NCBI GenBank assembly: GCA_043827405.1
Contig: JBDRPD010000053.1
Location: 1-64,000 of the forward strand
Length of the DNA stretch: 64,000 bases
Direction: 5' to 3'
Source of the DNA: Elusimicrobiota bacterium
GTDB taxonomy: Bacteria > Elusimicrobiota > Elusimicrobia > UBA1565
Positions 7,126 through 64,000 of the stretch are shown here, piece after piece. Position 1 is the first letter of the stretch. The number at the start of each line of letters is the position of its first letter. Below the pieces are notes generated by a model. That model had not been told where the DNA came from and searched no databases. It worked only from the letters and a program-made list of their open reading frames with translations. The position numbers and the translations under genes were made by a program.

Positions 7126-7134
7126 GGCCCGGCG

Positions 7135-9381: not shown

Positions 9382-9580
9382 CCTTGACCTCCGTATCGAA
9401 ATCGGCGATATCCTCGTTAACCGCGACGCACAGCAGGCCGCGGTGCTCGAGTATCGGATCGAGCTCGTCGCGGCTCAGCAGGAGATCCGCCAGCGGGCCC
9501 GGCTTATGCTGCTCGATCTCCATCTCATGGCGGCCGATCCAGTCCGCGCACTGGGCGAAGAATATCAGCTTTATCGCCAT
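9338..9580 (-). CDS. moaD: Molybdopterin synthase sulfur carrier
   Basis: 80 aa ubiquitin-like; GDEVAFMPPVSGG C-terminus. Confidence 0.95.
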   Translation of the reverse strand: MAIKLIFFAQCADWIGRHEMEIEQHKPGPLADLLLSRDELDPILEHRGLLCVAVNEDIADFDTEVKDGDEVAFMPPVSGG

Positions 9581-10068: not shown

Positions 10069-10071
10069 AAC

Positions 10072-10186
10072 TCCTCCTTTCCAATTAAGCCCGCCGGGGC
10101 TTCGGGAGGCGAAAGCCTTTCGACTTTCACCCAACGGCCGCGAGAGCTTTCCGCGTGGCGGGGCAGCGCTCGAGGCTCGGATTCCA
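10072..10186 (-). ncRNA. Moco/Tuco RNA motif (molybdenum-cofactor riboswitch candidate)
   Basis: Minus strand UCCGAGC...GAAAGUC-GAAA-GGCUUUC-GCCUCCCG-AAGCCC(CGGC)GGGCUU-AAU-UGGAAAGGAG, immediately 5' of moaC and including its RBS; TATAAT at 10195-10190 just upstream. Confidence 0.85.
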
Positions 10187-10190
10187 CCCA

Positions 10191-23663: not shown

Positions 23664-23729
23664 CTGCACAGTATATCCATCCAGGCACCACTTGCGCCAC
23701 TAGCGCGCCGCGCTCCGCTGAAAGTGAGC

Positions 23730-31917: not shown

Positions 31918-34900
31918 ATGTTACACAAGCGACTACTGCCGGCGCTTATTATCGCCCTGTTGATGCCCGGCCGGACGCCCGCGGCGTCCGCCGAACCGCA
32001 GCCCGCGGTGTGGCGCGGACATGCCGGCGGGGTGACTGCGGCGGTCTTCTCGCCCGACGGCGAAACCGTGCTGTCGGTCGGCAGCGACGACGCGCTCAAG
32101 CTGTGGGATGTGCGCACCGGTACGGTGCGCGCGAGCTGGGACGAGAGCGCGCTGGAGGTGGACGCCCTCGCCTTCACGCCGGACGGCAAGACGATCCTCG
32201 CGGCGGGAAGAGATCACTCCCTGCTGCTGCTCGACGCGGCGACCGGCGCCGAGCGCGCCGCGCTGCGCGGACACTACGGGGCGATCCGCGCCATCGCCCT
32301 GTCTCCCGACGGACAAACCGCGGCGACGGCATCCTTCTACGGAGCGATCAAGCTCTGGGACCTGCGGACCAAAAGCGAGCTCGCGACCCTGCACCATGGC
32401 CCCGATGCCGGCGCGGTCTGTCTCGCCTTCTCGCCGGACGGGCGGCGCCTGGTCTCCGGCATGTGGCATAAGGTGCTCTGGGTATGGGACGTCGGCCGGC
32501 GCGAACGGATCGCGGTGCTCAAGGGGCATACCGGCCGCGTGCTGTCCGTCGCCTTCTCGCCGGACGGGAAAAAGCTCCTTTCCGGCGGCCGCGACACCAC
32601 GCTCCGGCTGTGGGACGCGGACAGCGGCGCGGCGCTCGGAGTGTGGCGGGGACATACCAGCCATGTCAATTCCGTCGCCTTCTCGCCCGACGGCCGCACC
32701 GCGCTTTCGGGCGGCTCCGACTATACGCTCAGGAAATGGGACACGGCGACGGGCCGGACGCTCGCCGTATGGCGCGGGCATCAGGGCGACGTGCGCAGCG
32801 TCGCCTTCTCCCCGGACGGCGCGCTCGCCGTCTCGACGAGCGAGGACCGCACGCTCTGGGTGTGGAAAACGGACGGCGCCGCGGGAGCGGCCGCGCCCTC
32901 AACGCCGGGCTTCACGCCCGTCCCGCCGGCGGGCGAAAATCCGGAAGCCTGGCTGGGCCGCCTGCTCTTTTTCGACCGCCGGCTTTCCGGCAACTCGAGC
33001 CTTTCCTGCGCCTCCTGCCATGACCCGCGGCGGGCCTTCACGGACGAGCAGGCGCTTTCCGACGGCTATCCCGATACGCTGTATTTCCGCAACACCCCCA
33101 CGCTCATCAATGCCGCGAAGCAAAAGCACCTGTACTGGGACGGCCGCTTCCCCGGCGACGATATGCCGTCCCTCATCCGGGACCATATCTCGGAAGCGCA
33201 CTTCATGAACGCCGACGGCCGGCTGCTCGTCGAGAAGCTCCGCCAGGCCCCCGGCTACGTTCAGCTGTTCCAGCAGGTCTACGGGGCGGAGCCCTCATAC
33301 GGCAAGCTCCTCGAAGCGCTCACCGCCTTTGTCCGCACGCTCAACTCCGCCGCCGCCCCGTATGACCGGGACGCGCTGACGCCCGCCGCCCGCCGGGGCC
33401 TGGCGCTCTTCACCGGCGACGCCGGCTGCGCGCGCTGCCACCCCCCGCCCCGGTTTACCGATGGGATGCTGCACCGCCGCGGAGTTCCGGAAAACAGCGC
33501 CGTCTTCGCCCAGCCGCGCCGCCACATCTCGTTTCGACGCTTTTTCAAAATGCTCGGGGTCGACGACTACCCGGCGCTGCGCGCCGACCCCGGCCTCTAT
33601 GCCGTCACCAAGCGCGCCGCGGACCGGGGCCGGTTCAAAACGCCGTCGCTGCGCGAGAGCGCGCGGACCGCGCCCTATATGCACAACGGCGTGTTTGCGA
33701 CCCTCGCCGCGGCGGTCCGGCACGAGGATCCGCGCCTCAGCGACGGCCAGGTCGGAGATATCGTCGCCTTCCTCGAATCCCTTTCCAGCGCGACGCCGGC
33801 CTATGCGCCGCCCCTGCTGCCGGAATTCGGCTTAAGAGATAAACGCCCCGCGGTTCCGGCGCCGGAGGCTCCCGCCCGCGCCGCGGCGGCGGCGCACGAG
33901 TTTCCCCCCTTGGCGCCGCTTCCCCCGGTCCCCGTACCCGAGGATAATCCGCTGACGCCGGAAAAGATCGCACTGGGCGGCATGCTGTTTCATGATTTTC
34001 GCATCGCGGGCGACGGCGAGACCTACTGCATGGCCTGCCATGAGCCCGCCATGGGCTGGGGCGACAGCAACGACGTGTCGCAGGGACATGCGGGCTCCCT
34101 GGACTGGCGCAACACCCAGACCTTGCTTAACGCCGCCTACTATTCGAAGCTTAACTGGGACGGCGCCAAGATCAGCCTTGAGGAGCAGGCCCGCAGCGCC
34201 ATCACCTCGAACCTCTCCGGCAACGGCGACATGGTCATGATCGAGGAGCGTCTGGCCCAGGTGCCGGAATTTGTCGAGCACTTCAAGCGGGCTTTCGGCA
34301 TCGAGCGCCCGAACTTTGAGAGCGTGCTCAAGGCGCTGGCCTCCTTCATTCGCGCCGTTCCGCTGTCGCGCGGCGTACCCTTCGACGCCTACATGAAAGG
34401 CGATACCTCGGCGCTGTCCGCCGCCGCGGTGCGCGGCCGGCGGCTTTTCGCGGGCAAGGCCGGCTGCATCCAGTGCCACAACGGCGCCCTGGTCTCCGAT
34501 CAGGACTTCCACGCGACCGGCGTCCCGGGAAATCCCGCCTTCGACCATATCGCGCTGCGCTTCCAGCATGCCATCCACGGGGTTCCGGAAGCGGTTTACC
34601 GCGACGCCGATGCCGATAGCGGACTATACCTCGTTACCCAGCGCGCGGAGGACGCCGGCAAGTTCCGCACCCCGAGCCTGCGCGAGCTCAAGGTCACGGC
34701 GCCCTATATGCACAACGGCGTATTCGCGACGCTGGAGGAGGTCATCGAGTTCTACGATCAAGGCGGCGGCGCGACGCCCAACAAGAGCCCCCGCCTTAAG
34801 CCGCTCAAGCTCGCGCCGCAAGAGAAACAGGATCTGCTGGCCTTTCTGGAATCGCTCAGCGGAACGGAGACGCCGGCCGAGTACGCGATAGCGCCGGAGC

Positions 34901-34944
34901 CCGACTACATCACTTTCGACGGCCGCGGCCGCAGGGTCAAATGA
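31918..34944 (+). CDS. WD40 propeller + tandem di-haem cytochrome c peroxidase/MauG fusion, copy 1
   Basis: Signal peptide; ~7 GH..WD repeats; CASCH, CARCH, CMACH, CIQCH; two TPSLRE..TAPYMHNG. Confidence 0.93.
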   Translation: MLHKRLLPALIIALLMPGRTPAASAEPQPAVWRGHAGGVTAAVFSPDGETVLSVGSDDALKLWDVRTGTVRASWDESALEVDALAFTPDGKTILAAGRDHSLLLLDAATGAERAALRGHYGAIRAIALSPDGQTAATASFYGAIKLWDLRTKSELATLHHGPDAGAVCLAFSPDGRRLVSGMWHKVLWVWDVGRRERIAVLKGHTGRVLSVAFSPDGKKLLSGGRDTTLRLWDADSGAALGVWRGHTSHVNSVAFSPDGRTALSGGSDYTLRKWDTATGRTLAVWRGHQGDVRSVAFSPDGALAVSTSEDRTLWVWKTDGAAGAAAPSTPGFTPVPPAGENPEAWLGRLLFFDRRLSGNSSLSCASCHDPRRAFTDEQALSDGYPDTLYFRNTPTLINAAKQKHLYWDGRFPGDDMPSLIRDHISEAHFMNADGRLLVEKLRQAPGYVQLFQQVYGAEPSYGKLLEALTAFVRTLNSAAAPYDRDALTPAARRGLALFTGDAGCARCHPPPRFTDGMLHRRGVPENSAVFAQPRRHISFRRFFKMLGVDDYPALRADPGLYAVTKRAADRGRFKTPSLRESARTAPYMHNGVFATLAAAVRHEDPRLSDGQVGDIVAFLESLSSATPAYAPPLLPEFGLRDKRPAVPAPEAPARAAAAAHEFPPLAPLPPVPVPEDNPLTPEKIALGGMLFHDFRIAGDGETYCMACHEPAMGWGDSNDVSQGHAGSLDWRNTQTLLNAAYYSKLNWDGAKISLEEQARSAITSNLSGNGDMVMIEERLAQVPEFVEHFKRAFGIERPNFESVLKALASFIRAVPLSRGVPFDAYMKGDTSALSAAAVRGRRLFAGKAGCIQCHNGALVSDQDFHATGVPGNPAFDHIALRFQHAIHGVPEAVYRDADADSGLYLVTQRAEDAGKFRTPSLRELKVTAPYMHNGVFATLEEVIEFYDQGGGATPNKSPRLKPLKLAPQEKQDLLAFLESLSGTETPAEYAIAPEPDYITFDGRGRRVK

Positions 34945-37937
34945 AGCTGAGCTATATCCTCGCGTTGGTCCTGACCGCGGCCGCGACCGCCGAAGAGGCG
35001 CCGCCCGGCATGGTCCTGCGCGGACACACCGATGACGTCAGCGCCGCGGTGTTCACCCCGGACGGCGCCGCCATCCTCTCGGTCGGCGGCGACGACACTT
35101 TGCGCCTGTGGGACGCCGCGACCGGAGCGTCCCGCGCCGTTTGGAAAGCGCCGGAAGGCGAAGCGGATGATCTGGCCATAACACCGGACGGCCGCACCGC
35201 GCTCTTGGCCGGAGCGGACGGCGCCCTGGTCCTCTGGGACCTGACGGCCGGGCGCCGCCTCGCCGCGCTCACCGGCCATAAGGAGCATATCCGCTCGATC
35301 GCGCTGTCGCCCGACGGGAGGCATGCCGCCACCACGTCGTTCGCCGGCGACCTCATCCTGTGGGACATCACGGCGCGCAAGCTGCTCGCGGTCCTGCATC
35401 CCGGACCGGGCGCGGGCGCCGTCTCCGCCGCTTTCTCCCCGGACGGCCGGAAGCTGGTCACCGGGATGTGGCATAAGGTGATCTGGGTATGGGACGTCGC
35501 CCGACGCGCCCGCATCGCGGAGTGGCCGGGGCATCAGGCCCGCGTCCTCGCCGTCGCCTTCTCGCCGGACGGCTCACGGGTCCTTTCGAGCGGCCGCGAC
35601 AATACCGTCCGGCTATGGGACGCGGAGAGCGGACAGCAGCTGGGAGCCTGGAAGGGACATGCCGGCAGCGTCAACGACGTAACCTTTTCACCGGACGGGA
35701 ACCGGGCGCTGTCGGCGGGGGCCGACGGTACGCTGCGGCTGTGGGACGCGGCGACGGGACGCGAACTCGCCGTCTGGCGGGGCCACCAGGCTCCCGTGCT
35801 GGAAGCGGCCTTCTCGCCGGACGGCAAGCGCGCGGTCTCGGCGAGCGAGGACGGAACGGTGCGTTTATGGGGCGACGCGCAAAGCCCTGAGCGCAGCGCG
35901 GGCGAGTACGCCGCGCCCGACGATGAAGCCGGCTTGGGCCGCCTGCTCTTCTTCGACCGCCGGCTGTCCGGAAACTCCGGCATCAGCTGCGCCACATGCC
36001 ATATCCCTGAACAAGCCTACAGCGACGGGCTGGCGCTGTCGGCGGGCTATCCCGATACCCGCTATTTCCGCAATACGCCGACCTTGCTCAATATCGCGGG
36101 GCAGAAGAATCTGTACTGGGACGGACGGTTTTCATCCGCTGATCTGCCGTCGCTGATGCGCGATCACATCTCGGAAGCGCACTTCATGAACGCCGACGGC
36201 CGCCTGATCGTCGAAAAGCTGCGCCAAGCGCCCGGCTACGTGCGGGCCTTCCAGAAGGTCTACGGGAGCGAACCGTCCTACTCCCGCCTGCTCGACGCCC
36301 TTGGCGCCTATGTCCGCTCGCTGCAATCCGCGCCGGCGCGCTATGACCTCTACCTGCGCGGCGACCCGACCGCCTTGCCGGCGGCGGCGCGCCGCGGCCT
36401 GGCGCTGTTCACCGGCGAAGCCGGCTGCGCGCGCTGCCACCGCGGGCCGCTGCTGACCGACGACAGCCTGCATGCCCGGCAGGTGCCGGAGAATCCGGAG
36501 ATACTCAAGGATCCTCTGCGCAGCATCACCTTCCGGCGCTTTTTCAAGCTGCTCGGGGTGGAAAACTACCAGCAGCTTAAACAGGACGTCGGGCTCTACG
36601 CCGTCAGCAAGCAGCCGCGCGACCGCGGGCGGTTCAAAACCCCGTCCCTGCGCGAGGTCGCGCGCACCGCGCCGTACATGCACAACGGCATATGCGAAAC
36701 GCTCGACGAGGCGGTCGCCTTCGAGAACCCGAACCTGAGCAAGCGCCAGCGGCGCGACATCGTCGCCTTCCTCGAGACGCTCTCCAGCGAGACGCCGCCG
36801 GCGGCGGCGCCCTCTTTGCCGGAGTATGCGCTGCTGAAGCTCGCCCGCGAAAGGCCGGCGGCGCGGCCGCAGCCGGCCGGCGGCGCGAAGCAGGCTCCGC
36901 CGCTCGCTCCTCTGCCGCCGGTACCGGTCCCCGAAGACAACCCCCTGACGCCGGTCAAAATAGAACTCGGCATCCGTCTGTTTCATGACCCGCGCCTGTC
37001 CGGAGACGGCCATACCCGCTGCATCACCTGCCATGAGCCCGCGATGGGCTGGGGCGACGGCAGCGCGCTCGCCCAGGGACACCCGGGAACGCTGCATTGG
37101 CGCAATGCCCAGACCCTGCTCAACGCCGCCTACCATACCCGCCTGGAATGGGACGGCGCGTGGCCCAGCCTGGAGGAGCAGGCCCGTCACGCCATCACCT
37201 CCAACCTCAACGGCAACGGCGATCCGGTCATGATCGAGGAGCGCTTGGCGCAGTCCCCGGGCTATGTCGAGCTGTTCCGCCGGGCCTTCGGCGTCGAGCG
37301 CCCGAACTTCGAAGGCGTGCTCAAAGCGCTGGCGTCATTTTTCCGCGGCGTCCTGGTATCCAAGAACGTCCCGTTCGACAACTACGCCCGCGGCGACGCG
37401 GCGGCGCTCGACGCGGCCGCCCGGCGGGGACTGACGCTGTTTCAAGGCAAGGCCGGCTGCCTGCGCTGCCATAACGGCCCGCTGGTTTCCGACGGCGAGT
37501 TTCACGCCACCGGGGTGCCGCGCAGCGCCGCGTTCGACGAGGTTCCGCTGCGCCAGGTCGCCCTGCGCTATCAGCACGCGGTCCGCGGCGCCCCCGAAGA
37601 GATGTACCGCGCCGCGGGCTCCGATCCCGGCCTGTATTTTATGACCCGGCGCGAGCTGGACATCGGCAAGTTCCGCACCCCGAGCCTGCGCGAGCTGAAA
37701 TACACCGCGCCCTATATGCACAACGGCGTTTTCAACTCGCTCGCGGAAGTCGTCGACTTCTACGACCGGGGCGGCGGCGAGGCGGCAAACAAAACGCCGC
37801 TGCTGCGGCCGCTGAGCCTGACGCCGGGCGAGAAGCGCGACCTCATCGCCTTCCTCGAATCCTTGAGCGGCGACGAGATCGCGGTCGGCTACCCCATCAC
37901 TCTGGGACCCTACTACGCGCCCGCGGAGGAACCGTGA
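34941..37937 (+). CDS. WD40-(CCP)2 fusion, copy 2
   Basis: ATGA overlap; CATCH, CARCH, CITCH, CLRCH. Confidence 0.93.
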   Translation: MKLSYILALVLTAAATAEEAPPGMVLRGHTDDVSAAVFTPDGAAILSVGGDDTLRLWDAATGASRAVWKAPEGEADDLAITPDGRTALLAGADGALVLWDLTAGRRLAALTGHKEHIRSIALSPDGRHAATTSFAGDLILWDITARKLLAVLHPGPGAGAVSAAFSPDGRKLVTGMWHKVIWVWDVARRARIAEWPGHQARVLAVAFSPDGSRVLSSGRDNTVRLWDAESGQQLGAWKGHAGSVNDVTFSPDGNRALSAGADGTLRLWDAATGRELAVWRGHQAPVLEAAFSPDGKRAVSASEDGTVRLWGDAQSPERSAGEYAAPDDEAGLGRLLFFDRRLSGNSGISCATCHIPEQAYSDGLALSAGYPDTRYFRNTPTLLNIAGQKNLYWDGRFSSADLPSLMRDHISEAHFMNADGRLIVEKLRQAPGYVRAFQKVYGSEPSYSRLLDALGAYVRSLQSAPARYDLYLRGDPTALPAAARRGLALFTGEAGCARCHRGPLLTDDSLHARQVPENPEILKDPLRSITFRRFFKLLGVENYQQLKQDVGLYAVSKQPRDRGRFKTPSLREVARTAPYMHNGICETLDEAVAFENPNLSKRQRRDIVAFLETLSSETPPAAAPSLPEYALLKLARERPAARPQPAGGAKQAPPLAPLPPVPVPEDNPLTPVKIELGIRLFHDPRLSGDGHTRCITCHEPAMGWGDGSALAQGHPGTLHWRNAQTLLNAAYHTRLEWDGAWPSLEEQARHAITSNLNGNGDPVMIEERLAQSPGYVELFRRAFGVERPNFEGVLKALASFFRGVLVSKNVPFDNYARGDAAALDAAARRGLTLFQGKAGCLRCHNGPLVSDGEFHATGVPRSAAFDEVPLRQVALRYQHAVRGAPEEMYRAAGSDPGLYFMTRRELDIGKFRTPSLRELKYTAPYMHNGVFNSLAEVVDFYDRGGGEAANKTPLLRPLSLTPGEKRDLIAFLESLSGDEIAVGYPITLGPYYAPAEEP

Positions 37938-40900
37938 TCCGCCTGCTGGCCGCGCTGCTCGCGCTCGCCGTCTCGGCCGCGGCCGCCCCGCGGCCGCCGC
38001 TGCTCGCCACCTGGCGCGGCCTGACCAACGACGTCTACGACGTTGCGTTCTCGCCGGACGGCCGCCGGGTGCTGTCCGCCAACAAGGACGGCACGCTGAA
38101 GCTGTGGGACGTCGCGACCGGCCGCGTCGTTGCCGCGTGGGAGGGGCACCGTTCGGAAGTCATCGCCGCCGCCTTCTCGCCGGACGGCCGCACCGCCGTC
38201 TCCGGCAGCGAAGACCGGACGTTGAAGTTATGGGACACAGCCACCGGCAAAGAGCTGGCGACTCTGGGCGCGCACGACGACTTCATCCTCAAAGTCGACA
38301 TCTCGCGCGACGGAAAAACCGCCGCCTCGGTATCGTTTGACGGGCTCATCAAGCTGTGGGATCTGGACGCCCGCCGCGAAATCGCGGTCCTCGGCGGCAG
38401 CCGGACCGCCCGCGCCCTGGACGCCTCGTTCTCGCCGGACGGCGAGCGGATCATCGCGGCGCAGTGGGACAAGACGCTGCGGCTTTGGGACGTGAAGACG
38501 CGGCGCCTGCTGGCGACCTGGCGGGGGCACAAGAACCAGGTGCTGACGGCGGCGTTCTCGCCCGACGGCGGCAAGGTTATCTCGGGCAGCCGCGACAATA
38601 CCCTGCGCGTCTGGAACGCCGCCGACGGCCGGACGCTCGCCGTTCTGCGCGGACACCAAAGCCACGTGACCGCCGCCGCCTTCTGCCCGGACAGCCGCAC
38701 CGCGCTCTCGGCGGGGATGGACTACTCGGTACGCAAGTGGGACACCCGAACGGGCGCCGAGCTGGAAGTCTGGAGCGGGCACGACGACGCGGTCTACGCG
38801 CTCGCCGTCTCGGCGGACGGGCGGCTCGCCGTTTCGGCGGGGGAAGACGACACCCTGCGCCTATGGGACATCACGGGCGGCGCCGACGCCGCCGCCTTCA
38901 CCGCCCCCGTCTACCCCGCCCCGGTCTACCGTCCGGCGCCGGGCGAAAGCGGCGAGGAGTGGCTCGGGCGCATGCTCTTTTTCGATGACCGGCTCACCGG
39001 CGACAACAACACGAACTGCGCCTGGTGCCATAATCCGCAGCAGGCCTTCACCGACGGCGGCGCCCTCTCCTCGGGCTACCCCGGCTTCTTTTTCCGCAAC
39101 ACGCCGACGCTCATCAACGCCGCGGGGCAGAAGCACCTGTACTGGGACGGCCGCTTTTCCGCCGACGACCTGCCCTCGCTCATCCGCGACCATATCTCCG
39201 AGGCGCACTTCATGAACGCCGACGGCCGTCTGATCGTGGAAAAGCTGCGCCAGGCGCCCGGCTACGTACAGGCCTTTCAGGAAGTCTACGGCGCCGAACC
39301 CGGCTACGGCCGGTTGCTCGATGCTCTTGCCGCCTTCGTCCGTTCCCTAAAGTCCGGGAAGTCGCCCTACGACCTGGACGCGCTGACGCCCGCCGCCCGG
39401 CGCGGCCGCGCGCTCTTCACCGGCGAGGGCGGCTGCGCGGACTGTCATAGCGGACCGCTCTTCACCGACGGGGAGTTCCATGACCGCGGGGTGCCGGAAA
39501 ATCCCCTGATCTTCGGCGACTATCTGCGCCAGGTCTCCTTCCGGCGCTTTTTTAAAGCACTGGGAGTGAAGGGCTACCAGGACCTCAAACGCGATGTCGG
39601 GCTCTTCGCCGTCACCAAGCGGGAAGACGATCGCGGAAAGTTCCGCACCCCGAGCCTGCGCGAGGTCGCGCGCACCGCGCCCTACATGCACAACGGGATA
39701 TTCCCGACGCTCGACGCGGCGGTCGCGCATGAAAACCCGAAGCTCACGCCGGAGGAGCGCGGCGACATCGCGGCGTTCCTGGAAGCGCTCAGCAGCGAGA
39801 CGCGGACCGTCGAGGCGCCGCCGCTTCCGGCGTATGCGCTGCGTGAACCGCCCCGGCGGAAGGCCGCTGCTACCGGGCCGCGCGAACGGGCCGCGGCGCC
39901 CAGCGCGCCGCCGCCTCTGGCTCCGCTGCCGGCCGTGCCGGTGCCCGCCGATAATCCCTTGACCGCGGCCAAGATCGAGCTGGGCAAGATGCTGTTCTTC
40001 GACCCCCGCTTCTCGGGCAGCGGCGACTCCGGCTGCGTCAGCTGCCATGAGCCGGCCACCGGCTGGGGCGACGCCAGCGCCCTGGCGCGGGGCTACGAAG
40101 GCACGCTGCACTGGCGCAACACCCAGAGCCTGCTCAACGCCGCCTATTACACCAAGCTCGAATGGGACGGCGCCTGGCCGAGCCTGGAGGAGCAGGCGCG
40201 CGGCGCCATCACCTCCAACCTCAACGGCAACGGCGATCCCGAGATGATCGAAGAGACGCTGGCGCAGATTCCGCTCTATATCGACCTGTTCAAAAAGGCT
40301 TTCGGCGTCGACCGGCCGAACTTCGAGGGCGCGCTCAAAGCGCTGGCCTCGTTTCAACGCGCGGTTCCCATATCCCGCGACACGCCCTTGGACCGCAGCC
40401 TGCGGGGCGACAAGTCGGCGCTCTCCCGGGCGGCCCGGCGCGGACGGCGGCTGTTCGAAGGCAAGGCCGGCTGCCTGCGCTGCCATAACGGCGCGCTGGC
40501 CTCGGACCAAGGCTTCCATGCCACCGGCGTCCCCCAGAGCCCGGATTTCCGCATCACCCCGCTGCGCCAGGTGACCCTGCGCTACCAGCACGTCATCCGC
40601 GGCGTACCCGAGGAAGTCTACCGCGACGCCGATACGGACCCGGGCCTCTATTTGACGACGCACCGGGAAGAGGATAGCGGCAAATTCAGGACGCCGAGCC
40701 TGCGCGAGCTCAAGCACACCGCGCCCTATATGCATAACGGCGCCTTCCGCACGCTCGAGGAAGTCGTAGAGTTCTACGACCAAGGCGGCGGCGCGACCCC
40801 CAACAAGAGCCCGCTGCTGCGGCCGCTCGGACTTTCTCCGCGCGAGAAGCGGGACCTCATCGCTTTCCTGCTGGCGCTCTCGGGCGAAGAAATAATCGTC

Positions 40901-43830: not shown

Positions 43831-43837
43831 AAACCGC

Positions 43838-55750: not shown

Positions 55751-55759
55751 AAAGCGGCC
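55742..55759. terminator. Hairpin between convergent genes (possible intrinsic terminator)
   Basis: GGCCGCT-AGAA-AGCGGCC touching both stop codons, followed by TACTCTTTCTTCTT. Confidence 0.5.
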
Positions 55760-56190
55760 TACTCTTTCTTCTTGAGCTTCATGCCGCACTTGGGGCATTT
55801 GCCCGGCGCATGCCCTTTATGGCAGCCCATCGGGCAGACGTAAACCTGGCCCGGCTTCTTGTCCTTTTTCTTGAGCAAGCAGCTCTTGCAGGTGCATCCT
55901 TCCTTGCAGCCGCTCTTGGCGTAGGCGGCCTGAATCTTCTCGACCACCGCCTTGTCCTTGGACGTGATGCGGATAATGATACCGTCGGCGGTATTTTCGA
56001 ACTTGGTCTCAGCGCCCTTTATCGACATAGGGCAGACATGAGCGTCCTTCTTGACGAGCTTCCCGTCTTTCGCGGCGGCATGCGCTTCTCCCACGCCGCA
56101 GGAACCGCAATGGGACCATGACGCTCCCGGGGCGCACAGCAGCGCCGCGGCCAAACCGGCGGCGATCCAAAGTCCTTGATATTTTTTCAT
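55759..56190 (-). CDS. Secreted Cys/His-rich heavy-metal-binding protein
   Basis: Signal peptide then HCGSCG; HVCPM; CKEGCTCKSC; C-terminal YVCPMGCH...PGKCPKCGMKL heavy-metal-binding-type motif. Confidence 0.82.
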   Translation of the reverse strand: MKKYQGLWIAAGLAAALLCAPGASWSHCGSCGVGEAHAAAKDGKLVKKDAHVCPMSIKGAETKFENTADGIIIRITSKDKAVVEKIQAAYAKSGCKEGCTCKSCLLKKKDKKPGQVYVCPMGCHKGHAPGKCPKCGMKLKKKE

Positions 56191-56275
56191 GATGAGCCTC
56201 TTTGGTGAAGAATCAAATCCAGTACAGAATAGACGAAGTCTTTCAACGCAAGCTTAACACGGTCTTAATTCCTTC

Positions 56276-56998
56276 TCAACAACACCCCTTGTCCGAGCAT
56301 CCCTCATCCGTACACCCTTTATCCGAGCACCCCTCATCCGTACATCCGCACCCTTTATCCGCGCATCCATGCCCCGAGCCTGCGGGCGGACGAACGGCGA
56401 TAAAAATCGGACAGAGCCCGTCCGCGGTCTTTTCGCCGGCATGGACTTCCTTCATCTTCACCGTCTCCGGCCGGTCGATGACCGCGCCGCGGCCCCGCCA
56501 GTCGATCTTCTGCAGCACCGCCTCCACATGTTCGGACAAGCCGCGGATGACGAGCTTGAGGGTCGGCGAGGCGTGCTCGCTCTGGTAGCGCTCGAGCGCG
56601 ATTCCCAGCCGCAGCATCCCGGCGACGGCCCGGTCTTTCTCCGCGGCGCTCAAACCGTAATGCCCGAGCTGATTTTCCAGCGTCTGGAGAGCTTCCCCCT
56701 CGAGATCGAGCTTAAGCTCCTTGCTGCGCTCGCCCGCGGTTATTTTCACCGCGTCTTTGGGCGTCATGCCGGTCAAAGTAAAAACGTCGCCGAGGTCCTT
56801 GAAGGGAACTTCGCTGACGTCGAGAAAGACCAGGCGGCAGTTGCCGTTGATCGCGGTAAACAGATCGGTCGTATAGTTGAAACAGCCGATAACGGCATTG
56901 GCCAGAAAGCCGTCCACGTCTTTCTCCGGCTTCGCTTCCCAATCTTTTCCGATCAGCTCTTGCAAAACGGAAACCGGTATCTTCCCGACCACTGCCAT
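56276..56998 (-). CDS. Hypothetical protein with a Cys-rich pentapeptide-repeat tail
   Basis: GGAGG RBS before ATG 56998; ends GCADKGCGCTDEGCSDKGCTDEGCSDKGCC. Confidence 0.75.
   Translation of the reverse strand: MAVVGKIPVSVLQELIGKDWEAKPEKDVDGFLANAVIGCFNYTTDLFTAINGNCRLVFLDVSEVPFKDLGDVFTLTGMTPKDAVKITAGERSKELKLDLEGEALQTLENQLGHYGLSAAEKDRAVAGMLRLGIALERYQSEHASPTLKLVIRGLSEHVEAVLQKIDWRGRGAVIDRPETVKMKEVHAGEKTADGLCPIFIAVRPPAGSGHGCADKGCGCTDEGCSDKGCTDEGCSDKGCC
56284..56368. repeat. 15-bp coding tandem repeat, GC(T/S/A)D(E/K) x5
   Basis: cccttgtccgagcat / ccctcatccgtacac / cctttatccgagcac / ccctcatccgtacat ... Confidence 0.85.
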
Positions 56999-57078
56999 AA
57001 GCCCCTCCCGGACGCAAGAGTTCCTCCTTCGCGTCGGCACACTCTTTGTATCATATCTTCCGGCCGCATTCCGAAGCC

Positions 57079-60000
57079 ATGCCCAGCATTCACGCCGCCA
57101 TAACGGCCTTTCTGTTCGCACTGCTCGCGCCCCGCACCCTGGCGGCGGAGAGCGCGCTTATCGGCACGCTGGAGGGCCATACCGATCACGCCGTCAACGC
57201 CTATTTCACGCCGGACGGGAAACAGTTGCTGACCATCGGCGAAGACCATACGGTCCGCCGCTGGGACGCCGCCTCCGGCGCCGAGCTCGTCGTCCACAGA
57301 TTCCACGATCCCGTTTCAGGCCTGTTCTATAAGGACGGCTACAAAGCCGCGGCCTTCCCGGAGCCCCACCGCCTGCAGATATGGAACCTCGCGACGGAAA
57401 AGCTGTTCGCCGACATCGAGGACTACAACGGCAAGATCCGGACTTTTCTTCTCGCACCGGATGGGCGCACCGCCGCGCTGCTGTCCTGGCAGGGAGAGGT
57501 TTCGCTGTGGGACCTGGACAAGCTCGACAGAATTGCGGTCCTCAACAGCGACCAGAAAGAGCGCGCCTGGTCCATTTCCCTCTCCCCGGACGGCCGGCAC
57601 CTGTTCGCCGGCGCCGGCGAGAAGGCGCATGTCATCATGCGGTGGGAGCTCGGCACCGGCAAGCTGCTGAGCTCCTGGACCGGACATACCAACAAAGTCC
57701 GCGACATCGCCTTCACTCCCGACGGCGCCAAGGCGCTCTCCGCCAGCGCGGACCATACGCTGCGGCTATGGGACATTTCCTCCGGCAAGACGCTGGCCGT
57801 CTGGAAGGGGCATACCAGCCAGATCTGGGCCGTCGACATCTCTCCCGACGGGAAGCGCGCGATATCGGCCGGCGCGGACTACGCCGTACGGCTATGGGAG
57901 GTGGAGACCGGACGTCAGCTGGCGGCCTGGTGGGGACATCAGGCCATCGTCCGCGACGTCACGTTCTCCCCCGACGGCACGCTGGCGGCCTCCGCGAGCG
58001 AGGACCATACGGTAAAACTCTGGAACGTCGAGGGACACGCGCGCATCGCCGCCTACCCCATACCTGAGCCGCCGCCCCCGCTCCCCGCGGGGCCGGGCAC
58101 GCCCGAAGAGCGGCTGGGGCGCATGCTGTTTTTTGATCAGCGGCTTTCCGGCGACACCCACCGGGACTGCGCCGTCTGCCACGCTCCCGAACTGGCCTTC
58201 GCGGACGGCCTGGAGCTGTCTTTGGGCGCGCAGAACGTGCTGTATTTCCGCAACACCCCTTCGCTCTACAACCTCGACGAGCTGAAGCTCCTTTATTGGG
58301 ACGGCCGCTTTCCCGCCGACGACCTGCCATCGCTGATCCGCGATCACATTTCCGAGGCGCATTTCATGAACGCCGACGGCCGCCTTATCGTGGAAAAGCT
58401 GCGCCAGGCGCCCGGCTATATCCGCGCCTTCCAGGAGGTATACGGCGAGGAGCCTTCCTATACCAAGGTCCTCGCCGCGCTGACCGCCTTCGTCCGTTCC
58501 ATCAAATCCGGCGCGTCGCCCTATGACCGGTATTTGGCCGGCGACGGCGACGCCCTGTCTCCCGCCGCCCGTCGAGGCTACGAGCTGTTCCTGGGCGATG
58601 CCGGATGCGCCCCATGCCATAGCGGCCCCATGCTCACGGACGGCAAGCTGCACGACCGCGGAGTGCCGGAGAACGAAGAGATCTACGATTCGCCCATGCG
58701 CCTCATATCGCTGCGCCGCTTCTTCAAGCTCCTCGGCGTAGAGGACTACGCCAATCTCCACCGCGACGTGGGCTTCTACGCTATATCGAAAAAACAGGAG
58801 GACATGGGCCGGTTCAGGACGCCCAGCCTGCGTGAAGTCGCACGTACGGCGCCGTACATGCATAACGGCCTGCTGCCTTCGCTCGATGACGCCGTTGCCC
58901 ACCAGAATCCGCGGCTGAGCCCGAGCGAGCGAAAAGACATCACGGCTTTCCTGGAATCTCTCACCAGCGCCACCACCGCCTATGTCTCCCCGCCGCTTCC
59001 GCGTTATGAACTGCGCCGTCGTGCCGCGGACAAGAGAACCGCGGCCGCCGCCGCTGCGGCAGAGGAACCGAAGTCCGCCTTTCCGCCCCTGGGCCCGCTG
59101 CCCCCGCCGCCGGTCCCTGCGGACAACCCGCTGACCGAGGAAAAAATCGAGCTCGGCAAGTTCCTGTACTTCGACAAACGTCTCTCGGGCAACGGCTACA
59201 CGTCCTGCGACACCTGCCACGAGCCGCCCAAAGGCTGGGCCGACGGCAGCGACCTGGCGCAAGGCTACCAGGGCACGCTGGACTGGCGCCATGCGCAGAC
59301 CTTGCTCAACGCCGCCTATTACACGAAGCTGGAATGGGACGGCGGCCAGCCGACCCTCGAGCAGCAGGCCAACGGAGCGATCACCTCGAATATTTCGGCC
59401 AACGGCGATCCGGAGATGATCGAGGAGCGGCTCGCCGCCACCCCGGAGTACGTCGCCATGTTCAAAAAGGCCTTCGGCGCCAAGCGCCCGACCTACGAGA
59501 ACGCGCTGAAGGCGATCGCATCTTTTGTCCGCGCCGTTCCGGTATCGCGCAACGTGCCGTTCGACAAGGGCGCTCTTTCCCCCGCCGCCCGGCGCGGCCG
59601 CAAGCTGTTCGAAGGCAAAGCCGGCTGCATCCAGTGCCACAACGGGCCGCTGGTCTCCGCTCAGGGATTTCACGCCACCGGCGTCCCCCGCAACCCCGGC
59701 CTGGACCACCTGCTGCTGCGGCAGATCACCGTGCGCTTTATGCATTCCAGCCGCGGCGTGCCGGAGGACATCTACCGGAACGCGGACTCCGATCCGGGCC
59801 TATACCTCAACACCCTGCGCCAGGAGGATATCGGTAAATTTCGCGCCCCGAGCCTGCGCGAGCTAAAGTACACCGCGCCGTATATGCATAACGGCATATT
59901 CCCGACGCTGGAAGCGGTGGTGGACTTTTACAATAAGGGCGGAGGCGAGACGCCCAACAAGACCCCGCTCCTTAAACCCCTGGAGCTCAACGCCGGCGAG

Positions 60001-60156
60001 AAACAGGACCTGATCGCCTTTCTGCTGTCTCTCAGCGGCGACGAAGTGCTGATCACGCCGCCGCTCATTCCGCGCTTCCACCCCGGTCATGGAGACGACG
60101 ATGACGAGAAGGAGGACCCGCATGCGGGCCGGGACGATGACCATAATGCGCATTGA
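57079..60156 (+). CDS. WD40-(CCP)2 fusion, copy 9, with a His/Asp-rich tail
   Basis: Signal peptide from ATG 57079; CAVCH, CAPCH, CDTCH, CIQCH; ends HPGHGDDDDEKEDPHAGRDDDHNAH. Confidence 0.92.
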   Translation: MPSIHAAITAFLFALLAPRTLAAESALIGTLEGHTDHAVNAYFTPDGKQLLTIGEDHTVRRWDAASGAELVVHRFHDPVSGLFYKDGYKAAAFPEPHRLQIWNLATEKLFADIEDYNGKIRTFLLAPDGRTAALLSWQGEVSLWDLDKLDRIAVLNSDQKERAWSISLSPDGRHLFAGAGEKAHVIMRWELGTGKLLSSWTGHTNKVRDIAFTPDGAKALSASADHTLRLWDISSGKTLAVWKGHTSQIWAVDISPDGKRAISAGADYAVRLWEVETGRQLAAWWGHQAIVRDVTFSPDGTLAASASEDHTVKLWNVEGHARIAAYPIPEPPPPLPAGPGTPEERLGRMLFFDQRLSGDTHRDCAVCHAPELAFADGLELSLGAQNVLYFRNTPSLYNLDELKLLYWDGRFPADDLPSLIRDHISEAHFMNADGRLIVEKLRQAPGYIRAFQEVYGEEPSYTKVLAALTAFVRSIKSGASPYDRYLAGDGDALSPAARRGYELFLGDAGCAPCHSGPMLTDGKLHDRGVPENEEIYDSPMRLISLRRFFKLLGVEDYANLHRDVGFYAISKKQEDMGRFRTPSLREVARTAPYMHNGLLPSLDDAVAHQNPRLSPSERKDITAFLESLTSATTAYVSPPLPRYELRRRAADKRTAAAAAAAEEPKSAFPPLGPLPPPPVPADNPLTEEKIELGKFLYFDKRLSGNGYTSCDTCHEPPKGWADGSDLAQGYQGTLDWRHAQTLLNAAYYTKLEWDGGQPTLEQQANGAITSNISANGDPEMIEERLAATPEYVAMFKKAFGAKRPTYENALKAIASFVRAVPVSRNVPFDKGALSPAARRGRKLFEGKAGCIQCHNGPLVSAQGFHATGVPRNPGLDHLLLRQITVRFMHSSRGVPEDIYRNADSDPGLYLNTLRQEDIGKFRAPSLRELKYTAPYMHNGIFPTLEAVVDFYNKGGGETPNKTPLLKPLELNAGEKQDLIAFLLSLSGDEVLITPPLIPRFHPGHGDDDDEKEDPHAGRDDDHNAH

Positions 60157-63154
60157 GCGCTGGGGCCTCCTGGCCTGCGCGCTGCTTCTCTCCCGGCCCG
60201 CCGCCGCTGCCAGCGGACCGCTGCTCGCCGTCTTGGAAGGCCATACCGACCTGGTCCGGCAGGCGGTCTTCACCCCGGACGGCACCCAGGTCCTGTCGAT
60301 CGGCAACGACCATGCGGTGCGCCGATGGGACGCCGCCGCAGGCCGCGAGCTCTCGGCCTTTCTCTCCGCGGACCCTGTGCTGAGGGTATTCGCGCAAGGA
60401 GCGCCGAAATTCGCCGCCTACACCCCGGATTACGCCATCATCATGCGCGATCTGACCTCGGGCAAGCGCCTGGCCGCTCTGCGCCGGCTCAACGACGAAA
60501 CGGAAGCCGTCGCGCTGACCCCGGACGGCCGCACCGCGGCGACGCTCTCCTACGAGGGCGAGGTCATCCTTTGGGATCTCAAGAAGGAACGCCGGCTCGC
60601 GGCGCCGGAAGCCAACGGCTCCGCCATCGCCTTTTCACCGGACGGCGGCAGCCTGCTGGTCGGCAAGCGCGACCATACCCTGCAGCTCTATTCTCTGCCG
60701 GGAGAACCGGCGGCGCCGGCCTGGCGCGGCCACCGCGGCGAGATCCTTGCCGTCGCCTTCTCGCCGGACGGCGGAAAAGCGCTCTCCGGCGCGCGCGACA
60801 ACACCCTCCGCCTCTGGGACGTGAAGACCGGAGCGGCGCTCGGCGTCTGGCGCGGCCATACGAGCCACGTCCTCGCTTTGGCGTTCTCCCCGGACGGGCG
60901 CCGGGCGCTTTCCGGCGGAGCGGACTACACCGTCCGGCTATGGGACGCCGCGGCGGGCCGGGAGCTCGCCGTCTGGTGGGGACACCAGGGAGCGGTCCGC
61001 GACGTGGCTTTCTCTCCCGACGGAAAGCGCGCCGTTTCCGCCGGCGAGGACCGGAGGCTCATGCTGTGGGACGCACGGGACGGCGCGGTGAGCAGCCGGC
61101 CCGGCGCCGGCGAGCAGGCGGCTCTTCCCCCCGGTCCGGGAACGCCCGAAGAACGGCTCGGCCGCCTGCTGTTTTTCGACAAGCGGCTGTCCGGCGACGA
61201 GGACGCCGACTGCGCCTTGTGCCATAACCCCGCCACAGCCTATACCGACGGCCTGCCGCTGGCCGAAAGCTATACCGCGCTCTACTTCCGCAATACGCCG
61301 ACCCTGCTCAATCTCGCGGCGCAAAAGCACCTGTACTGGGACGGCCGCTTCCCGGCCGACGACCTGCCCTCGCTTATCCGCGACCACATATCCGAAGCGC
61401 ATTTCATGAACGCCGACGGCCGCCTGATCGTGGAAAAACTGCGCCAGGCGCCCGGCTACGTGCACGCCTTCAAGGAAGTCTACGGCGGCGAGCCGTCTTA
61501 CTCCAGGATTCTTGCAGCTCTCAGCGCCTTCGTCCGGTCGCTGAAATCCGGCGCCCCGGCGGACGTTCTGACGCCCGCGGCGCGGCGCGGCCGGGACCTG
61601 TTCAACGGCGAGGCCGGCTGCGCCGGCTGTCACGCCGGCTCCGGCTTCACCGACGGCAAGCTGCACGCCCGCAAGGCTCCGCCCAATAAAGAAATTCTCC
61701 GGGAACCGCTGCGCCGCATCGCCCTGCGGCGTTTTTGCAAGGTCCTGGGCATCGAGAACTATGCCGAGGTACGCGAGGACCCGGGTCTCTACGCCGTCAC
61801 CAAGCGCCGGGAGGATAGCGGCAAGTTCAAAACGCCCGGCCTGCGGGAAGTCGCCCGCACCGCTCCCTACATGCACAACGGCTCGATCCGCAAGCTGGCA
61901 GACGCGGTCAAGCATGAAAATCCCCGGCTCAGCCGGCGCGAGCGAAAGGACATCGTCGCTTTTCTCGAAACGCTGTCCAGCGAGACGCCGCGATTTGATC
62001 CGCCGCTCGTGCCGCGCTACGCGGTCCAACCCCGGGACCTCCCCCCCGCGGCGGGAGCGGACTCGACCTGGGACGACGCCCCGGCGCCCGCACCCATCCG
62101 GGCCCGGGACTACCCGCCGCTTGGCCCGCTCCCGCCGGTCCCGGTCCCGGAGGACAACCCGCTCACCGACGAGAAAGTCCGGCTGGGAAAGCAGCTGTTT
62201 TTCGACGTGCGCCTGTCCGGCTCCCTGAGCCGTTCCTGCGCCTTCTGCCATGAGCCGGCGCTGGGCTGGGGAGACGGCAGCGACCTCTCGCAGGGCTACC
62301 GCCGGATGCTGCACTGGCGCAACTCCCAGACGCTGTTAAACGCCGCCTATTACAGCAAGCTGGAATGGGACGGCGCCTGGCCGAGCCTGGAGGAGCAGGC
62401 GCGCGGAGCGATCACCTCAAACATCAACGGCAACGGCGACCCGGCCACGATCGAGGAGCGCTTGGCCGAATCGCCGGAGTATGTGCGGATGTTCAAGCGG
62501 GCTTTCGGCGTGCAGCGGCCGAACTTCGAGAGCGTACTCAAGGCGCTCGCCTCCTTCCAGCGGGCGATCCCGATCTCGCGCAACGTCCCGTTCGATCAAG
62601 GAGCCCTCTCTCCCGCCGCGCGGCGCGGCCGCGAGCTGTTTGCCGGCAAGGCGGGCTGCATCGCCTGCCATAATGGACCGCTGGCCTCCGATCAGGGCTA
62701 CCATGCCACCGGCGTCCCGCGCAATCCGGCATTTGATCACATCGCCCTGCGCCGGATCGCCCTGCGCTTCCAGCATGTGACCCGGGGAGTTCCTGAGGAG
62801 GTGTTCCGGCGCGCCGAAACGGATCCGGGGCTGTATCTAAATACGCTGCGCAAGGAAGATAGCGGGAAGTTCCGGACCCCGAGCCTGCGTGAGCTCAAGT
62901 ATACCGCGCCCTATATGCATAACGGCGTATTCCCGACCCTGCAGAAAGTAATAGACTTTTACGACCAGGGCGGCGGAACGGCGGACAATAAAAGCCCGCT
63001 GCTCAGATCGCTGGGGCTGACCGCGGCGGAGAAGCTGGACCTGATCGCCTTTCTGGAAGCGCTCTCGGGCGAGGAAATCATGGTCACCGCGCCGGACGCG
63101 CTGGGACCGCACATAACGGCGACGGGACGCGCCGCGGATACGCCGCACCATTAA
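60146..63154 (+). CDS. WD40-(CCP)2 fusion, copy 10
   Basis: Signal peptide from ATG 60146; CALCH, CAGCH, CAFCH, CIACH. Confidence 0.92.
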   Translation: MRIERWGLLACALLLSRPAAAASGPLLAVLEGHTDLVRQAVFTPDGTQVLSIGNDHAVRRWDAAAGRELSAFLSADPVLRVFAQGAPKFAAYTPDYAIIMRDLTSGKRLAALRRLNDETEAVALTPDGRTAATLSYEGEVILWDLKKERRLAAPEANGSAIAFSPDGGSLLVGKRDHTLQLYSLPGEPAAPAWRGHRGEILAVAFSPDGGKALSGARDNTLRLWDVKTGAALGVWRGHTSHVLALAFSPDGRRALSGGADYTVRLWDAAAGRELAVWWGHQGAVRDVAFSPDGKRAVSAGEDRRLMLWDARDGAVSSRPGAGEQAALPPGPGTPEERLGRLLFFDKRLSGDEDADCALCHNPATAYTDGLPLAESYTALYFRNTPTLLNLAAQKHLYWDGRFPADDLPSLIRDHISEAHFMNADGRLIVEKLRQAPGYVHAFKEVYGGEPSYSRILAALSAFVRSLKSGAPADVLTPAARRGRDLFNGEAGCAGCHAGSGFTDGKLHARKAPPNKEILREPLRRIALRRFCKVLGIENYAEVREDPGLYAVTKRREDSGKFKTPGLREVARTAPYMHNGSIRKLADAVKHENPRLSRRERKDIVAFLETLSSETPRFDPPLVPRYAVQPRDLPPAAGADSTWDDAPAPAPIRARDYPPLGPLPPVPVPEDNPLTDEKVRLGKQLFFDVRLSGSLSRSCAFCHEPALGWGDGSDLSQGYRRMLHWRNSQTLLNAAYYSKLEWDGAWPSLEEQARGAITSNINGNGDPATIEERLAESPEYVRMFKRAFGVQRPNFESVLKALASFQRAIPISRNVPFDQGALSPAARRGRELFAGKAGCIACHNGPLASDQGYHATGVPRNPAFDHIALRRIALRFQHVTRGVPEEVFRRAETDPGLYLNTLRKEDSGKFRTPSLRELKYTAPYMHNGVFPTLQKVIDFYDQGGGTADNKSPLLRSLGLTAAEKLDLIAFLEALSGEEIMVTAPDALGPHITATGRAADTPHH

Positions 63155-63158
63155 AACT

Positions 63159-63356
63159 ATGACCGAGAAAAAGCACAAGCCGCTGGGACACCGCCTCAAG
63201 GAGAACCTGGAGGTCCTGAAGGAAATATACGCCCTGATCAAGCTGCATAAGCGCTGGGCGCTTCTGCCCGTCTTTCTCGTCCTGGCCGTGCTCAGCCTGT
63301 TTATCACTTTGGCGGGCGGCAGCTCCGTCCTCCCGGCGATCTACGCGCTGTTCTAA
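63159..63356 (+). CDS. DUF5989 / SxtK-like small membrane protein
   Basis: KRWALLPVFLVL...SSVLPAIYALF signature. Confidence 0.82.
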   Translation: MTEKKHKPLGHRLKENLEVLKEIYALIKLHKRWALLPVFLVLAVLSLFITLAGGSSVLPAIYALF

Positions 63357-64000
63357 TGGTCCGGCTCCTGCTTTTTGCCGCGGCCGCTTTCGCTTTCGCC
63401 GCCGAAACAGACAGCGCCCTAATACGATCCTTCGCCGGCCACCGGGACCTCGTTAACAGCGTCGCCGTGTCGCATGATGGACGGAGGATGGCATCCGGCA
63501 GCGCCGACCTCACCATCCGGCTGTGGGACATCGCGACCGGCAAGCAGCTATCGCTGTGGAAAGGGCATACGGTCGAAGTGAACATGGTCGTTTTCTTCCC
63601 CGACGACAAGAAGCTGCTGTCCGCCGGCGCCGACAACAACATCTACCTGTGGGACGCCGCGACGGGAAAAAATCTCGCGATCTGGCACGGCCATACCGAC
63701 GACGTCAATGCTATCGCCGTCTCACCCGACGGCACCAAAGCGCTTTCCGGCGGCCACGACGGCTACGTGCGGCTATGGGACACGGCGACCGGGAAACTGC
63801 TCGCCTCCTGGCTGGTCGACAACTTCGTCTACGCCGTCGCCTTCTCTCCCGACGGCAGCAAAGCGCTTTCCGGACAATGGGACAAGACGCTCAAGCTGTG
63901 GGACGTCGCGACCGGGAAGCTCCTCGCCACCTGGAGGGGCCATACCGACAAGGTCTACGCCGTCGACTTTACTCCCGACGGGAAAACCGCGCTGTCGAGC
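63356..64000 (+). CDS. Secreted WD40-repeat protein, partial (possible copy 11)
   Basis: TAATG coupling; MVRLLLFAAAAFAFAA signal; GH..WD repeats including GQWDKTLKLWD..WRGH as in the array; open to the window end. Confidence 0.85.
   Translation, partial: MVRLLLFAAAAFAFAAETDSALIRSFAGHRDLVNSVAVSHDGRRMASGSADLTIRLWDIATGKQLSLWKGHTVEVNMVVFFPDDKKLLSAGADNNIYLWDAATGKNLAIWHGHTDDVNAIAVSPDGTKALSGGHDGYVRLWDTATGKLLASWLVDNFVYAVAFSPDGSKALSGQWDKTLKLWDVATGKLLATWRGHTDKVYAVDFTPDGKTALSS

Follow-up and report, generated by a model that had tools for sequence, protein, structure and literature searches.

The window analyzed here comprises 64,000 nucleotides, the first 64 kb of contig JBDRPD010000053.1 (C53; 194,892 bp) in the Elusimicrobiota genome assembly GCA_043827405.1, and contains a tandem array of genes whose predicted products join a WD40 propeller to two di-haem modules related to the IdrP proteins of iodate reductase. 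The host genome (4.33 Mb) is 98% complete, with a contamination of 0.48%. Positions 31918 to 63154 of the + strand are filled by ten open reading frames (ORFs) of 960 to 1036 amino acids, each without an internal stop. WD40 repeats and two CCP_MauG stretches were detected by Pfam in all ten ORFs, and an eleventh copy is encoded alone on another contig of the same genome (C108:46811-49843, − strand). Exactly four CxxCH motifs, two per module, are present in each of the eleven proteins. These data agree with the sequence-only reading, which described ten intact paralogues of about 1000 amino acids with four CxxCH motifs each. All copies start with a hydrophobic N-terminal segment and have no later membrane helix, which, by a hydropathy heuristic and not by SignalP, indicates a putative Sec-type signal peptide; nothing in the evidence examined points to export of the array proteins past the periplasm.

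Copy 1 (31918 to 34944; 1008 amino acids) consists of the predicted signal peptide, WD40 propeller, IdrP2 module, proline-rich linker, and IdrP1 module. It is followed on the same strand by copy 2 (34941 to 37937; 998 amino acids; ATGA overlap with copy 1), copy 3 (37934 to 40951; 1005 amino acids; GTGA overlap), copy 4 (40951 to 43830; 959 amino acids from the ATG at 40951; TGATG overlap), copy 5 (43838 to 46804; 988 amino acids), copy 6 (46801 to 49782; 993 amino acids), copy 7 (49779 to 52802; 1007 amino acids), and copy 8 (52799 to 55750; 983 amino acids), which ends the first run and has a terminator-like hairpin at 55742 to 55759 (pattern match only). Copy 9 (57079 to 60156; 1025 amino acids from the ATG at 57079) and copy 10 (60146 to 63154; 1002 amino acids from the ATG at 60146) complete the array. 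The earlier description of copies joined by short stop/start overlaps applies to six of the nine junctions, where the overlaps are 1 to 4 nucleotides long (ATGA four times, GTGA, and TGATG), but not to the other three, which are a 7-nucleotide gap (4/5), an 11-nucleotide overlap (9/10), and a 1.3-kb spacer (8/9). It had also counted at least ten copies, with a further WD40 gene running off the edge of the window. Ten are indeed present, but the edge gene (63356 to 64000, ending at contig position 64330; + strand) encodes a stand-alone, secreted seven-bladed WD40 protein of 324 amino acids with no haem module. Therefore, the array holds exactly ten copies, and the eleventh is the one on C108.

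The two haem modules were sorted against references from Roseovarius azorensis, Azonexus NCP973, and an Elusimicrobia metagenome-assembled genome (MAG); PMC11445184 and PMC13455634 present the first two as shown iodate reducers. All 24 host modules, from the 11 copies and from a fused gene linked to the host's own idr genes, scored higher against the matching P2 or P1 type than against the other type. Likewise, all 24 matched the IdrP references better than any of 15 other CCP/MauG/MbnH modules, and all 212 IdrP-type modules fell into one clade apart from 15 such modules (FastTree support, 0.997). Two loci with broken or partial P genes (L033 and L043) were excluded from the module counts, and 41 five-motif and 3 three-motif proteins were excluded from the module tree; a Ralstonia region considered as an outgroup was also left out. 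Of the two separate di-haem genes, the one next to idrB corresponds to module 2 and the more distant one to module 1; by the gene order in PMC10989891 and the accession order in PMC10149662, the distant gene is IdrP2 and the adjacent gene IdrP1. The array modules are thus not the generic bacterial cytochrome c peroxidase (bCCP)/MauG-family peroxidases that they were first taken for, as every one of them sorts to IdrP2 or IdrP1 of iodate reductase. We hold with high confidence that each array gene is a WD40-IdrP2-IdrP1 fusion and that this architecture originated once: in the idr lineage of the host, idrP2 and P1 were already one gene when it was combined with a gene for a secreted WD40 protein, after which the product was amplified and its copies were maintained by purifying selection.

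Orthologous modules, in the same order of P2 then P1, are found in the IdrABP1P2 systems of Pseudomonas sp. SCT, Denitromonas IR-12, Azoarcus DN11, Azonexus NCP973, and Roseovarius azorensis. Identity of the array modules to the IdrP proteins of shown reducers is 39 to 45% (P2) and 42 to 57% (P1), and the type-specific pocket motifs, the two CxxCH motifs each, and a Sec-type leader are shared. Unlike those proteins, the array copies are fused, capped by a WD40 propeller, and present in 11 copies away from idrAB; they have also lost a Tyr loop in P2 and a C-terminal motif in P1.

The cutoff of the MauG model TIGR03791 (443.85) was missed by copies 1 and 7 (360 and 369 bits) and by the C108 copy (342.5 bits). 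The 368 and 381 bits obtained with the MbnH model TIGR04039 (cutoff, 362.85) add up the scores of two modules, and IdrP proteins taken singly reached 157 and 220 bits. MauG, BthA, and MbnH share with the array the fold family, the bridging Trp, and, in the P1 module, a Tyr at the ligand position. In contrast to these enzymes, the array proteins have no Gln/Pro/Glu triad, no Tyr in P2, and no mau or mbn gene context, and identity is 28 to 39%. The canonical bCCP CcpA has the same di-haem fold, and the fused pair may mimic the bCCP dimer; however, CcpA has a His/Met six-coordinate haem, while Met occupies the ligand position in only 2 of 11 array P2 modules and in none of the 11 P1 modules, and the catalytic Glu is absent. 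Hydrazine synthase beta-gamma and YVTN-propeller/CCP fusions also join a seven-bladed propeller to a CCP-like di-haem domain, but they have another propeller family and one CCP unit instead of two, and the array proteins scored 43 to 64 bits against a cutoff of 1250 for NF052342 (hydrazine synthase beta-gamma). Two adjacent YVTN-type propeller-CCP genes with weak likeness to hydrazine synthase beta-gamma are present elsewhere in the same genome (C94:30729-35903).

The idr-linked fusion lies 26 kb past the array (C53:89227-91332) and encodes a protein of 701 amino acids that has the four-haem core of the array proteins but lacks a propeller. Next come the genes for a 917-amino-acid molybdoenzyme (C53:91345-94098) and a Rieske protein with a twin-arginine leader, so that the gene order is fused P2P1-A-B instead of P2-P1-B-A. 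The molybdoenzyme contains the motif CX2CX3CX70S, which is described for IdrA in PMC10149662, and was placed among IdrA sequences and not with two AioA references (SH-like approximate likelihood ratio test [SH-aLRT], 100; quick tree with a long-branch warning for the AioA rows). Its closest relative is that of the Elusimicrobia MAG (66% identity). RNA polymerase of the host is 65 to 78% identical to that of the same MAG, compared with 41 to 65% in three other matching genomes (five searched). On its clade, motif, Rieske partner, and adjoining IdrP, we assign the 917-amino-acid enzyme as the predicted IdrA of the host. Of the host fusions, only the one without a WD40 domain sits in this cluster, and the array ends 26 kb before it; therefore, the array copies are derivatives of IdrP and not the cluster's own subunits. 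At the head of the idr cluster (C53:88424-94634) is an overlapping gene whose ankyrin-repeat product has a lipoprotein-like leader.

Genes for molybdenum cofactor (Moco) synthesis (window positions 5.2 to 10.2 kb), twin-arginine translocation, and system II cytochrome c maturation are present in the host genome; CcmE was not found in it, and maturation looks like system II. The Moco genes belong to a block on the − strand (5159 to 12404), about 20 kb before the array, containing a Crp/Fnr regulator, moeA, moaA, mobA, moaE, moaC, and a HemN-like radical SAM gene. This block plausibly supplies the cofactor for IdrA. A chlorite-dismutase-family match on C108 was considered as a link to iodate and rejected, as it was weak, lay among unrelated genes, and returned only weak HemQ-type matches.

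Searches with the host molybdoenzyme returned 58 loci, comprising 37 IdrA-like loci and 21 distant enzymes without a CCP neighbor. Both di-haem types were found at 32 of the 37 IdrA-like loci and were fused in 4. Of the other five, four end at a contig edge; at the fifth (L027), the 10 kb around the IdrA-like gene contain no match to IdrB or IdrP. The P2-P1-B-A context recurs repeatedly among the metagenome loci listed. At two loci (L029 and L038), the P genes are located several kilobases downstream of idrBA, and another idr cluster is headed by a gene (L128:3707-11218) whose 2503-amino-acid product combines multicopper-oxidase domains with an IdrP-like module at the C terminus.

Phylogenetic placement points to one origin of the WD40 fusion. 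In a 29-row tree, all 18 WD40-fusion rows (11 from the host and 7 from elsewhere, one of them partial) formed a single clade (support, 99/98), whose sister comprised the host idr-linked fusion and three close WD40-less fusions (100/99). The deletion of the P2 Tyr loop is common to the WD40 fusions and these sister proteins, while the loop is kept in all 27 split P2 genes. The single clade, its fused sister without a propeller, and the shared deletion together argue for a single addition of the propeller, after P2 and P1 had been fused. The sister group belongs to the fused IdrP2-P1 tetrahaem and cytochrome c-P2-P1 pentahaem proteins of uncultured bacteria, which have the same four-haem core. 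In contrast to the WD40 fusions, these proteins lack the propeller and are encoded as a single copy directly beside idrA/idrB where the context is readable. Grouping of the 11 host copies as a clade of their own received support of 58/73 and is neither shown nor rejected. The stand-alone WD40 gene at 63356 is the closest nonfusion relative of the array propellers in the genome (43% identity to copy 5) and is a candidate relative of the propeller donor. In three other fused IdrP proteins (P0064, P0067, and P0112), the modules are reversed, P1 preceding P2, and these proteins thus seem to stem from an independent fusion.

At least six further full-length WD40 fusions occur in other metagenome assemblies, with 58 to 61% identity over the haem core where measured, and may come from a single organism or a small number of them. 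Their tandem order rests only on shared contig sizes (11812 for P0012, P0015, and P0033; 8502 for P0011 and P0124). Among the best 150 matches of a profile search against 50% representatives, where weaker fusions may rank lower, there was one whole-profile match (P0012) and three WD40-less IdrP fusions, the rest being long WD40 proteins. None of the 79 metagenome loci listed in a scan for loci of other fusions carried a WD40 fusion. A double-module gene was detected neither in 40 relatives, where IdrA likewise had no match, nor in 400 genomes drawn from the phylum, for which two candidates per genome were scored. The trait is thus rare and patchy, and the expansion noted from the sequence recurs in other metagenomes but not in the 40 related genomes. 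In one relative of the same order, four ordinary CCP-family genes that are not of the IdrP type lie within 12 kb (G034:C13:55061-67170). The WD40-IdrP architecture seems undescribed, as was presumed at the outset: a literature search, which for supplementary tables covered that of PMC13455634 alone so that other idr tables could list fused genes, returned no description of a WD40-IdrP fusion, a fused IdrP, idr in Elusimicrobiota, or a structure of the Idr complex.

Whole-chain AlphaFold2 models of copy 7 and P0012 reached predicted template modeling (pTM) scores of 0.92 and 0.91, respectively. Such values would be hard to reach with a 290-residue domain floating free, which suggests that the propeller is docked on the core of a compact single unit. 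In copy 7, the propeller (49845 to 50723; about residues 23 to 315) is followed by the IdrP2-type domain (50793 to 51662; about residues 339 to 628) and the IdrP1-type domain (51795 to 52733; about residues 673 to 985). The model matches 2ymu (Z score, 40.0; root mean square deviation, 2.1; 285 aligned) and 5yzv, with seven four-stranded blades. The fold searches were filled by propeller matches and thus were uninformative on the haem core, and matches to a protein atlas yielded leads below 0.9 only. A predicted complex of the copy 7 haem core, including four haems, with host IdrB scored 0.00 against a mark of 0.32; as the controls did not fold, this is no evidence either way. A fifth CxxCH motif is present in 41 of 120 listed homologues, and this five-haem group (including P0090, P0053, P0054, and P0095) apparently has the order cytochrome c-P2-P1. 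In four of the six five-haem proteins scanned, the best cytochrome c match was N-terminal, which places the propeller where many relatives carry an electron-carrier domain.

Divergence among the copies differs between domains. Mean amino acid identity is 66% for P2 and 70% for P1, compared with 48% for the propeller, in line with the initial description of the propellers as diversified. Within the propeller, blades 5 to 7 are conserved (57 to 60% mean identity) and blades 1 to 4 are variable (33 to 46%). Median ratios of nonsynonymous to synonymous substitution (dN/dS) over 55 pairs were 0.27 for P2, 0.25 for P1, and 0.50 for WD40, none of them near 1, with a synonymous divergence near 1; these are rough Nei-Gojobori estimates. 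The ratios indicate that the copies have been under long-kept purifying constraint, and positive selection is not shown. Copy 4 is visibly degenerate, with loop deletions in its P1 module and the longest branch among the host copies, and may be decaying or changing role.

PMC6405878 describes the Gln, Pro, and Glu residues over the open haem as conserved in bCCPs, MauG, and BthA and as needed for peroxide activation. The corresponding columns were placed via the MauG row of the alignment, and the haem-2 Met column was placed via an alignment with 3hq6. Each residue of the triad is kept in 14 of 15 outgroup modules, whereas the triad is lost in both modules of all 11 copies and of all 27 split pairs. 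The array P2 modules have Leu or Val, His, and Phe in these columns, and the array P1 modules have Gln, Ala (Met in one), and Asn, Ser, or Thr; in copy 7, P2 has His at the position of MauG Pro107 and neither Gln nor Glu, and P1 keeps Gln with Ala in place of Pro and Asn in place of Glu. Split P1 genes encode Ala or Gly at the Glu position, and Glu is found there in 7 of 59 unplaced fused P1 modules.

The Pro107 column of the 27 split P2 proteins contains His in 19, Met in 7, and Gln in 1. A switch between His and Met is typical of an axial haem ligand, and P2 haem 1 is thus probably closed by the His at this position. The haem-2 ligand column (Met in bCCP and Tyr in MauG) is occupied by Tyr in all 11 array P1 modules, for which we predict a His/Tyr six-coordinate haem. 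In the array P2 modules, where the Tyr loop is deleted, Tyr is absent and the column contains Glu in eight copies, Met in two (copies 6 and 7), and Gln in one (copy 9); the host idr-linked fusion also has Glu. The potential of P2 haem 2 should therefore differ between copies. The bridging Trp between the haems is present in both modules of every copy. Loops around the P1 haem differ between copies, and the His of the P1 His-Trp-Arg loop, present in all 27 split genes, is replaced by Asp in 3 of the 11 copies, including copies 1 and 9. The shared catalytic chassis of the sequence-only reading is weakened by the loss of the triad and is not uniform, as the haem-2 position and the P1 loop vary between copies. 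A double peroxidase accounts for these residues less well than an electron relay that has a single, unusual open site.

We tentatively propose, with somewhat more doubt than conviction, that the array proteins are four-haem relays which work in the periplasm on oxidants linked to iodine, the propeller of each serving as its address. Each protein would act as an electron relay and not as a classical peroxidase. The two haems of the P2 half would mainly pass electrons, and the P1 half would provide one His/Tyr haem and the only open haem of the chain. The open haem would have a noncanonical pocket (Gln, no Glu, and a His/Asp-Trp-Arg loop) and would probably reduce reactive oxidants associated with iodine redox chemistry, such as hypoiodous acid, iodine, or peroxide. 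The propeller, replacing the cytochrome c domain of many relatives, would use its conserved blades to pack on the haem core and present the variable ones to a redox partner. The copies would then be relays that differ in partner or potential and work apart from IdrAB, which would keep its dedicated P2P1. Several points weigh against this proposal. Ligand, substrate, and partner are all inferred, the ligands being read from alignment columns only. The models of copy 7 and P0012 share most of their alignment and are not independent, and the dN/dS estimates come from GC-rich sequence with near-saturated third positions. Furthermore, published models (PMC8692401, PMC10149662, and PMC13455634) treat IdrP1 and IdrP2 as H2O2-detoxifying peroxidases, and two residues that support bis-Fe(IV) chemistry, the bridging Trp and the Tyr at the ligand position, are retained in P1. 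No idr gene adjoins the array, idrA being 28 kb away, and the need for eleven relays in groundwater is unexplained. A bolder version, which we consider rather unlikely, is that IdrP2-P1 does not scavenge peroxide but is a four-haem wire ending in a new reactive-iodine haem site, which this lineage turned into a modular family that combines a single haem chassis, tuned in its ligands, with eleven interchangeable WD40 address labels routing electrons between different periplasmic partners and halogen oxidants.

Alternatively, the array proteins could be swap-in subunits that replace the dedicated P2P1 in IdrAB, with the propeller recruiting different electron donors. Both modules are about 60 to 65% identical to the host idr-linked fusion, and the Moco genes, array, and idr genes are located within about 90 kb of one contig. 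Moreover, the 40 relatives without a WD40 fusion also yielded no IdrA match. IdrP1 and IdrP2 comigrate with IdrA in active bands, according to PMC10149662, which likewise favors association with IdrAB. However, a C-terminal Leu-Pro-x-Tyr motif and one Lys of P1 are lost in the fusions and conserved in WD40-less forms, including the host's own, and eleven copies face a single idrAB. The lost residues are a weak hint that the fusions may no longer bind IdrAB, and we regard replacement of the dedicated subunits as improbable.

Equally improbable, in our view, are Idr-independent high-valent oxidases, in which P1 would form a MauG-like bis-Fe(IV) state and oxidize proteins or small molecules held by the variable propeller. 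MauG and hydrazine synthase pair the di-haem fold with seven-bladed propellers, and weak matches to both families were obtained here. Gln, the bridging Trp, and the predicted His/Tyr haem of P1 are kept in all 11 copies, and the loops around the P1 haem are variable. Nevertheless, the acid-base Glu is absent from every array P1 and from the P1 of all 27 split pairs, and in BthA, mutation of this residue impaired or abolished both peroxidase and bis-Fe(IV) activity, as described in PMC6405878. The absence of the triad from both modules weakens the oxidase reading, as do MauG scores of 360 to 369 bits against a cutoff of 444 and the lack of a mau or mbn substrate gene among the neighbors scanned.

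A less probable explanation still is dosage or birth and death only, whereby the copies would be alike in function or slowly decaying in a duplication-prone region, and the divergence of the propellers would reflect drift. The degenerate copy 4 and a WD40 dN/dS indicative of relaxed constraint, not positive selection, are compatible with this, as is the presence of other repeated families on the contig. Genes of the GDSL/SGNH family, some with TPRs, are repeated together with carbamoyltransferase and DUF5989 genes (window positions 307 to 1608 and 30662 to 31858; C53:64321-88436) and make up another expanded family, interspersed with the array region. In contrast, all eleven frames are intact at a synonymous divergence near 1, haem-module dN/dS is about 0.25, residues at ligand positions and in the pocket differ between copies, and multicopy fusions are also found in other metagenomes.

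A chimeric assembly of similar genes from several strains has a negligible probability: although this is a metagenome assembly and no single contig spans the whole stretch examined, the genome has little contamination, the copies are too diverged to collapse (highest DNA identity in any domain, 81%; longest identical run, at most 49 bases), depth is even, and junctions are bridged in two runs. Bridging was checked over positions 38001 to 58000. There, contigs of run X1, possibly the source run and thus not independent, bridge junctions 3/4, 4/5, 5/6, 6/7, 7/8, and 8/9 at a depth of 17 to 20, and contigs of run X2, from groundwater in a separate study, bridge junction 5/6 and the 8/9 spacer. 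Two more runs, X3 and X4, yielded short pieces only and were left out of the habitat reading. We conclude that the array is real, and its copies are diverged without frameshifts, as had been stated from the sequence.

The 8/9 spacer carries two genes on the opposite strand, one for a small protein with the heavy-metal-binding domain PF19335 by Pfam (55759 to 56190, −) and one for a 241-amino-acid protein with a Cys-rich tail of short repeats and no Pfam match (56276 to 57001, −), in which the strain in run X2 lacks 15 nucleotides. A small DUF5989 gene (63159 to 63356, +) separates the array from the stand-alone propeller. Upstream, positions 17950 to 23669 encode two B12-binding radical SAM proteins, a U32 peptidase-family protein, and a five-haem c554-like cytochrome. 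The C108 copy is flanked by a sodium:solute-symporter-like gene, recognized by eye, and surface-sugar genes.

The identity of the array proteins as IdrP2-P1 derivatives, of which we are nearly certain, is far firmer than any function. Recent papers (PMC11445184 and PMC10149662) still call the function of IdrP1 and IdrP2 unclear. The residue census challenges the peroxide-removal model across the IdrP family, including shown iodate reducers, as the triad is lost in both modules and a His/Met switch lies over the supposedly active P2 haem. As the eleven copies are natural single-chain variants that can be expressed without the molybdoenzyme, IdrP function becomes directly testable. The host idr cluster suggests that a groundwater bacterium of the Elusimicrobiota respires iodate, and in the array an accessory protein of respiration has become a multigene family equipped with a WD40 adaptor, offering a new route to what the poorly understood IdrP helpers do.

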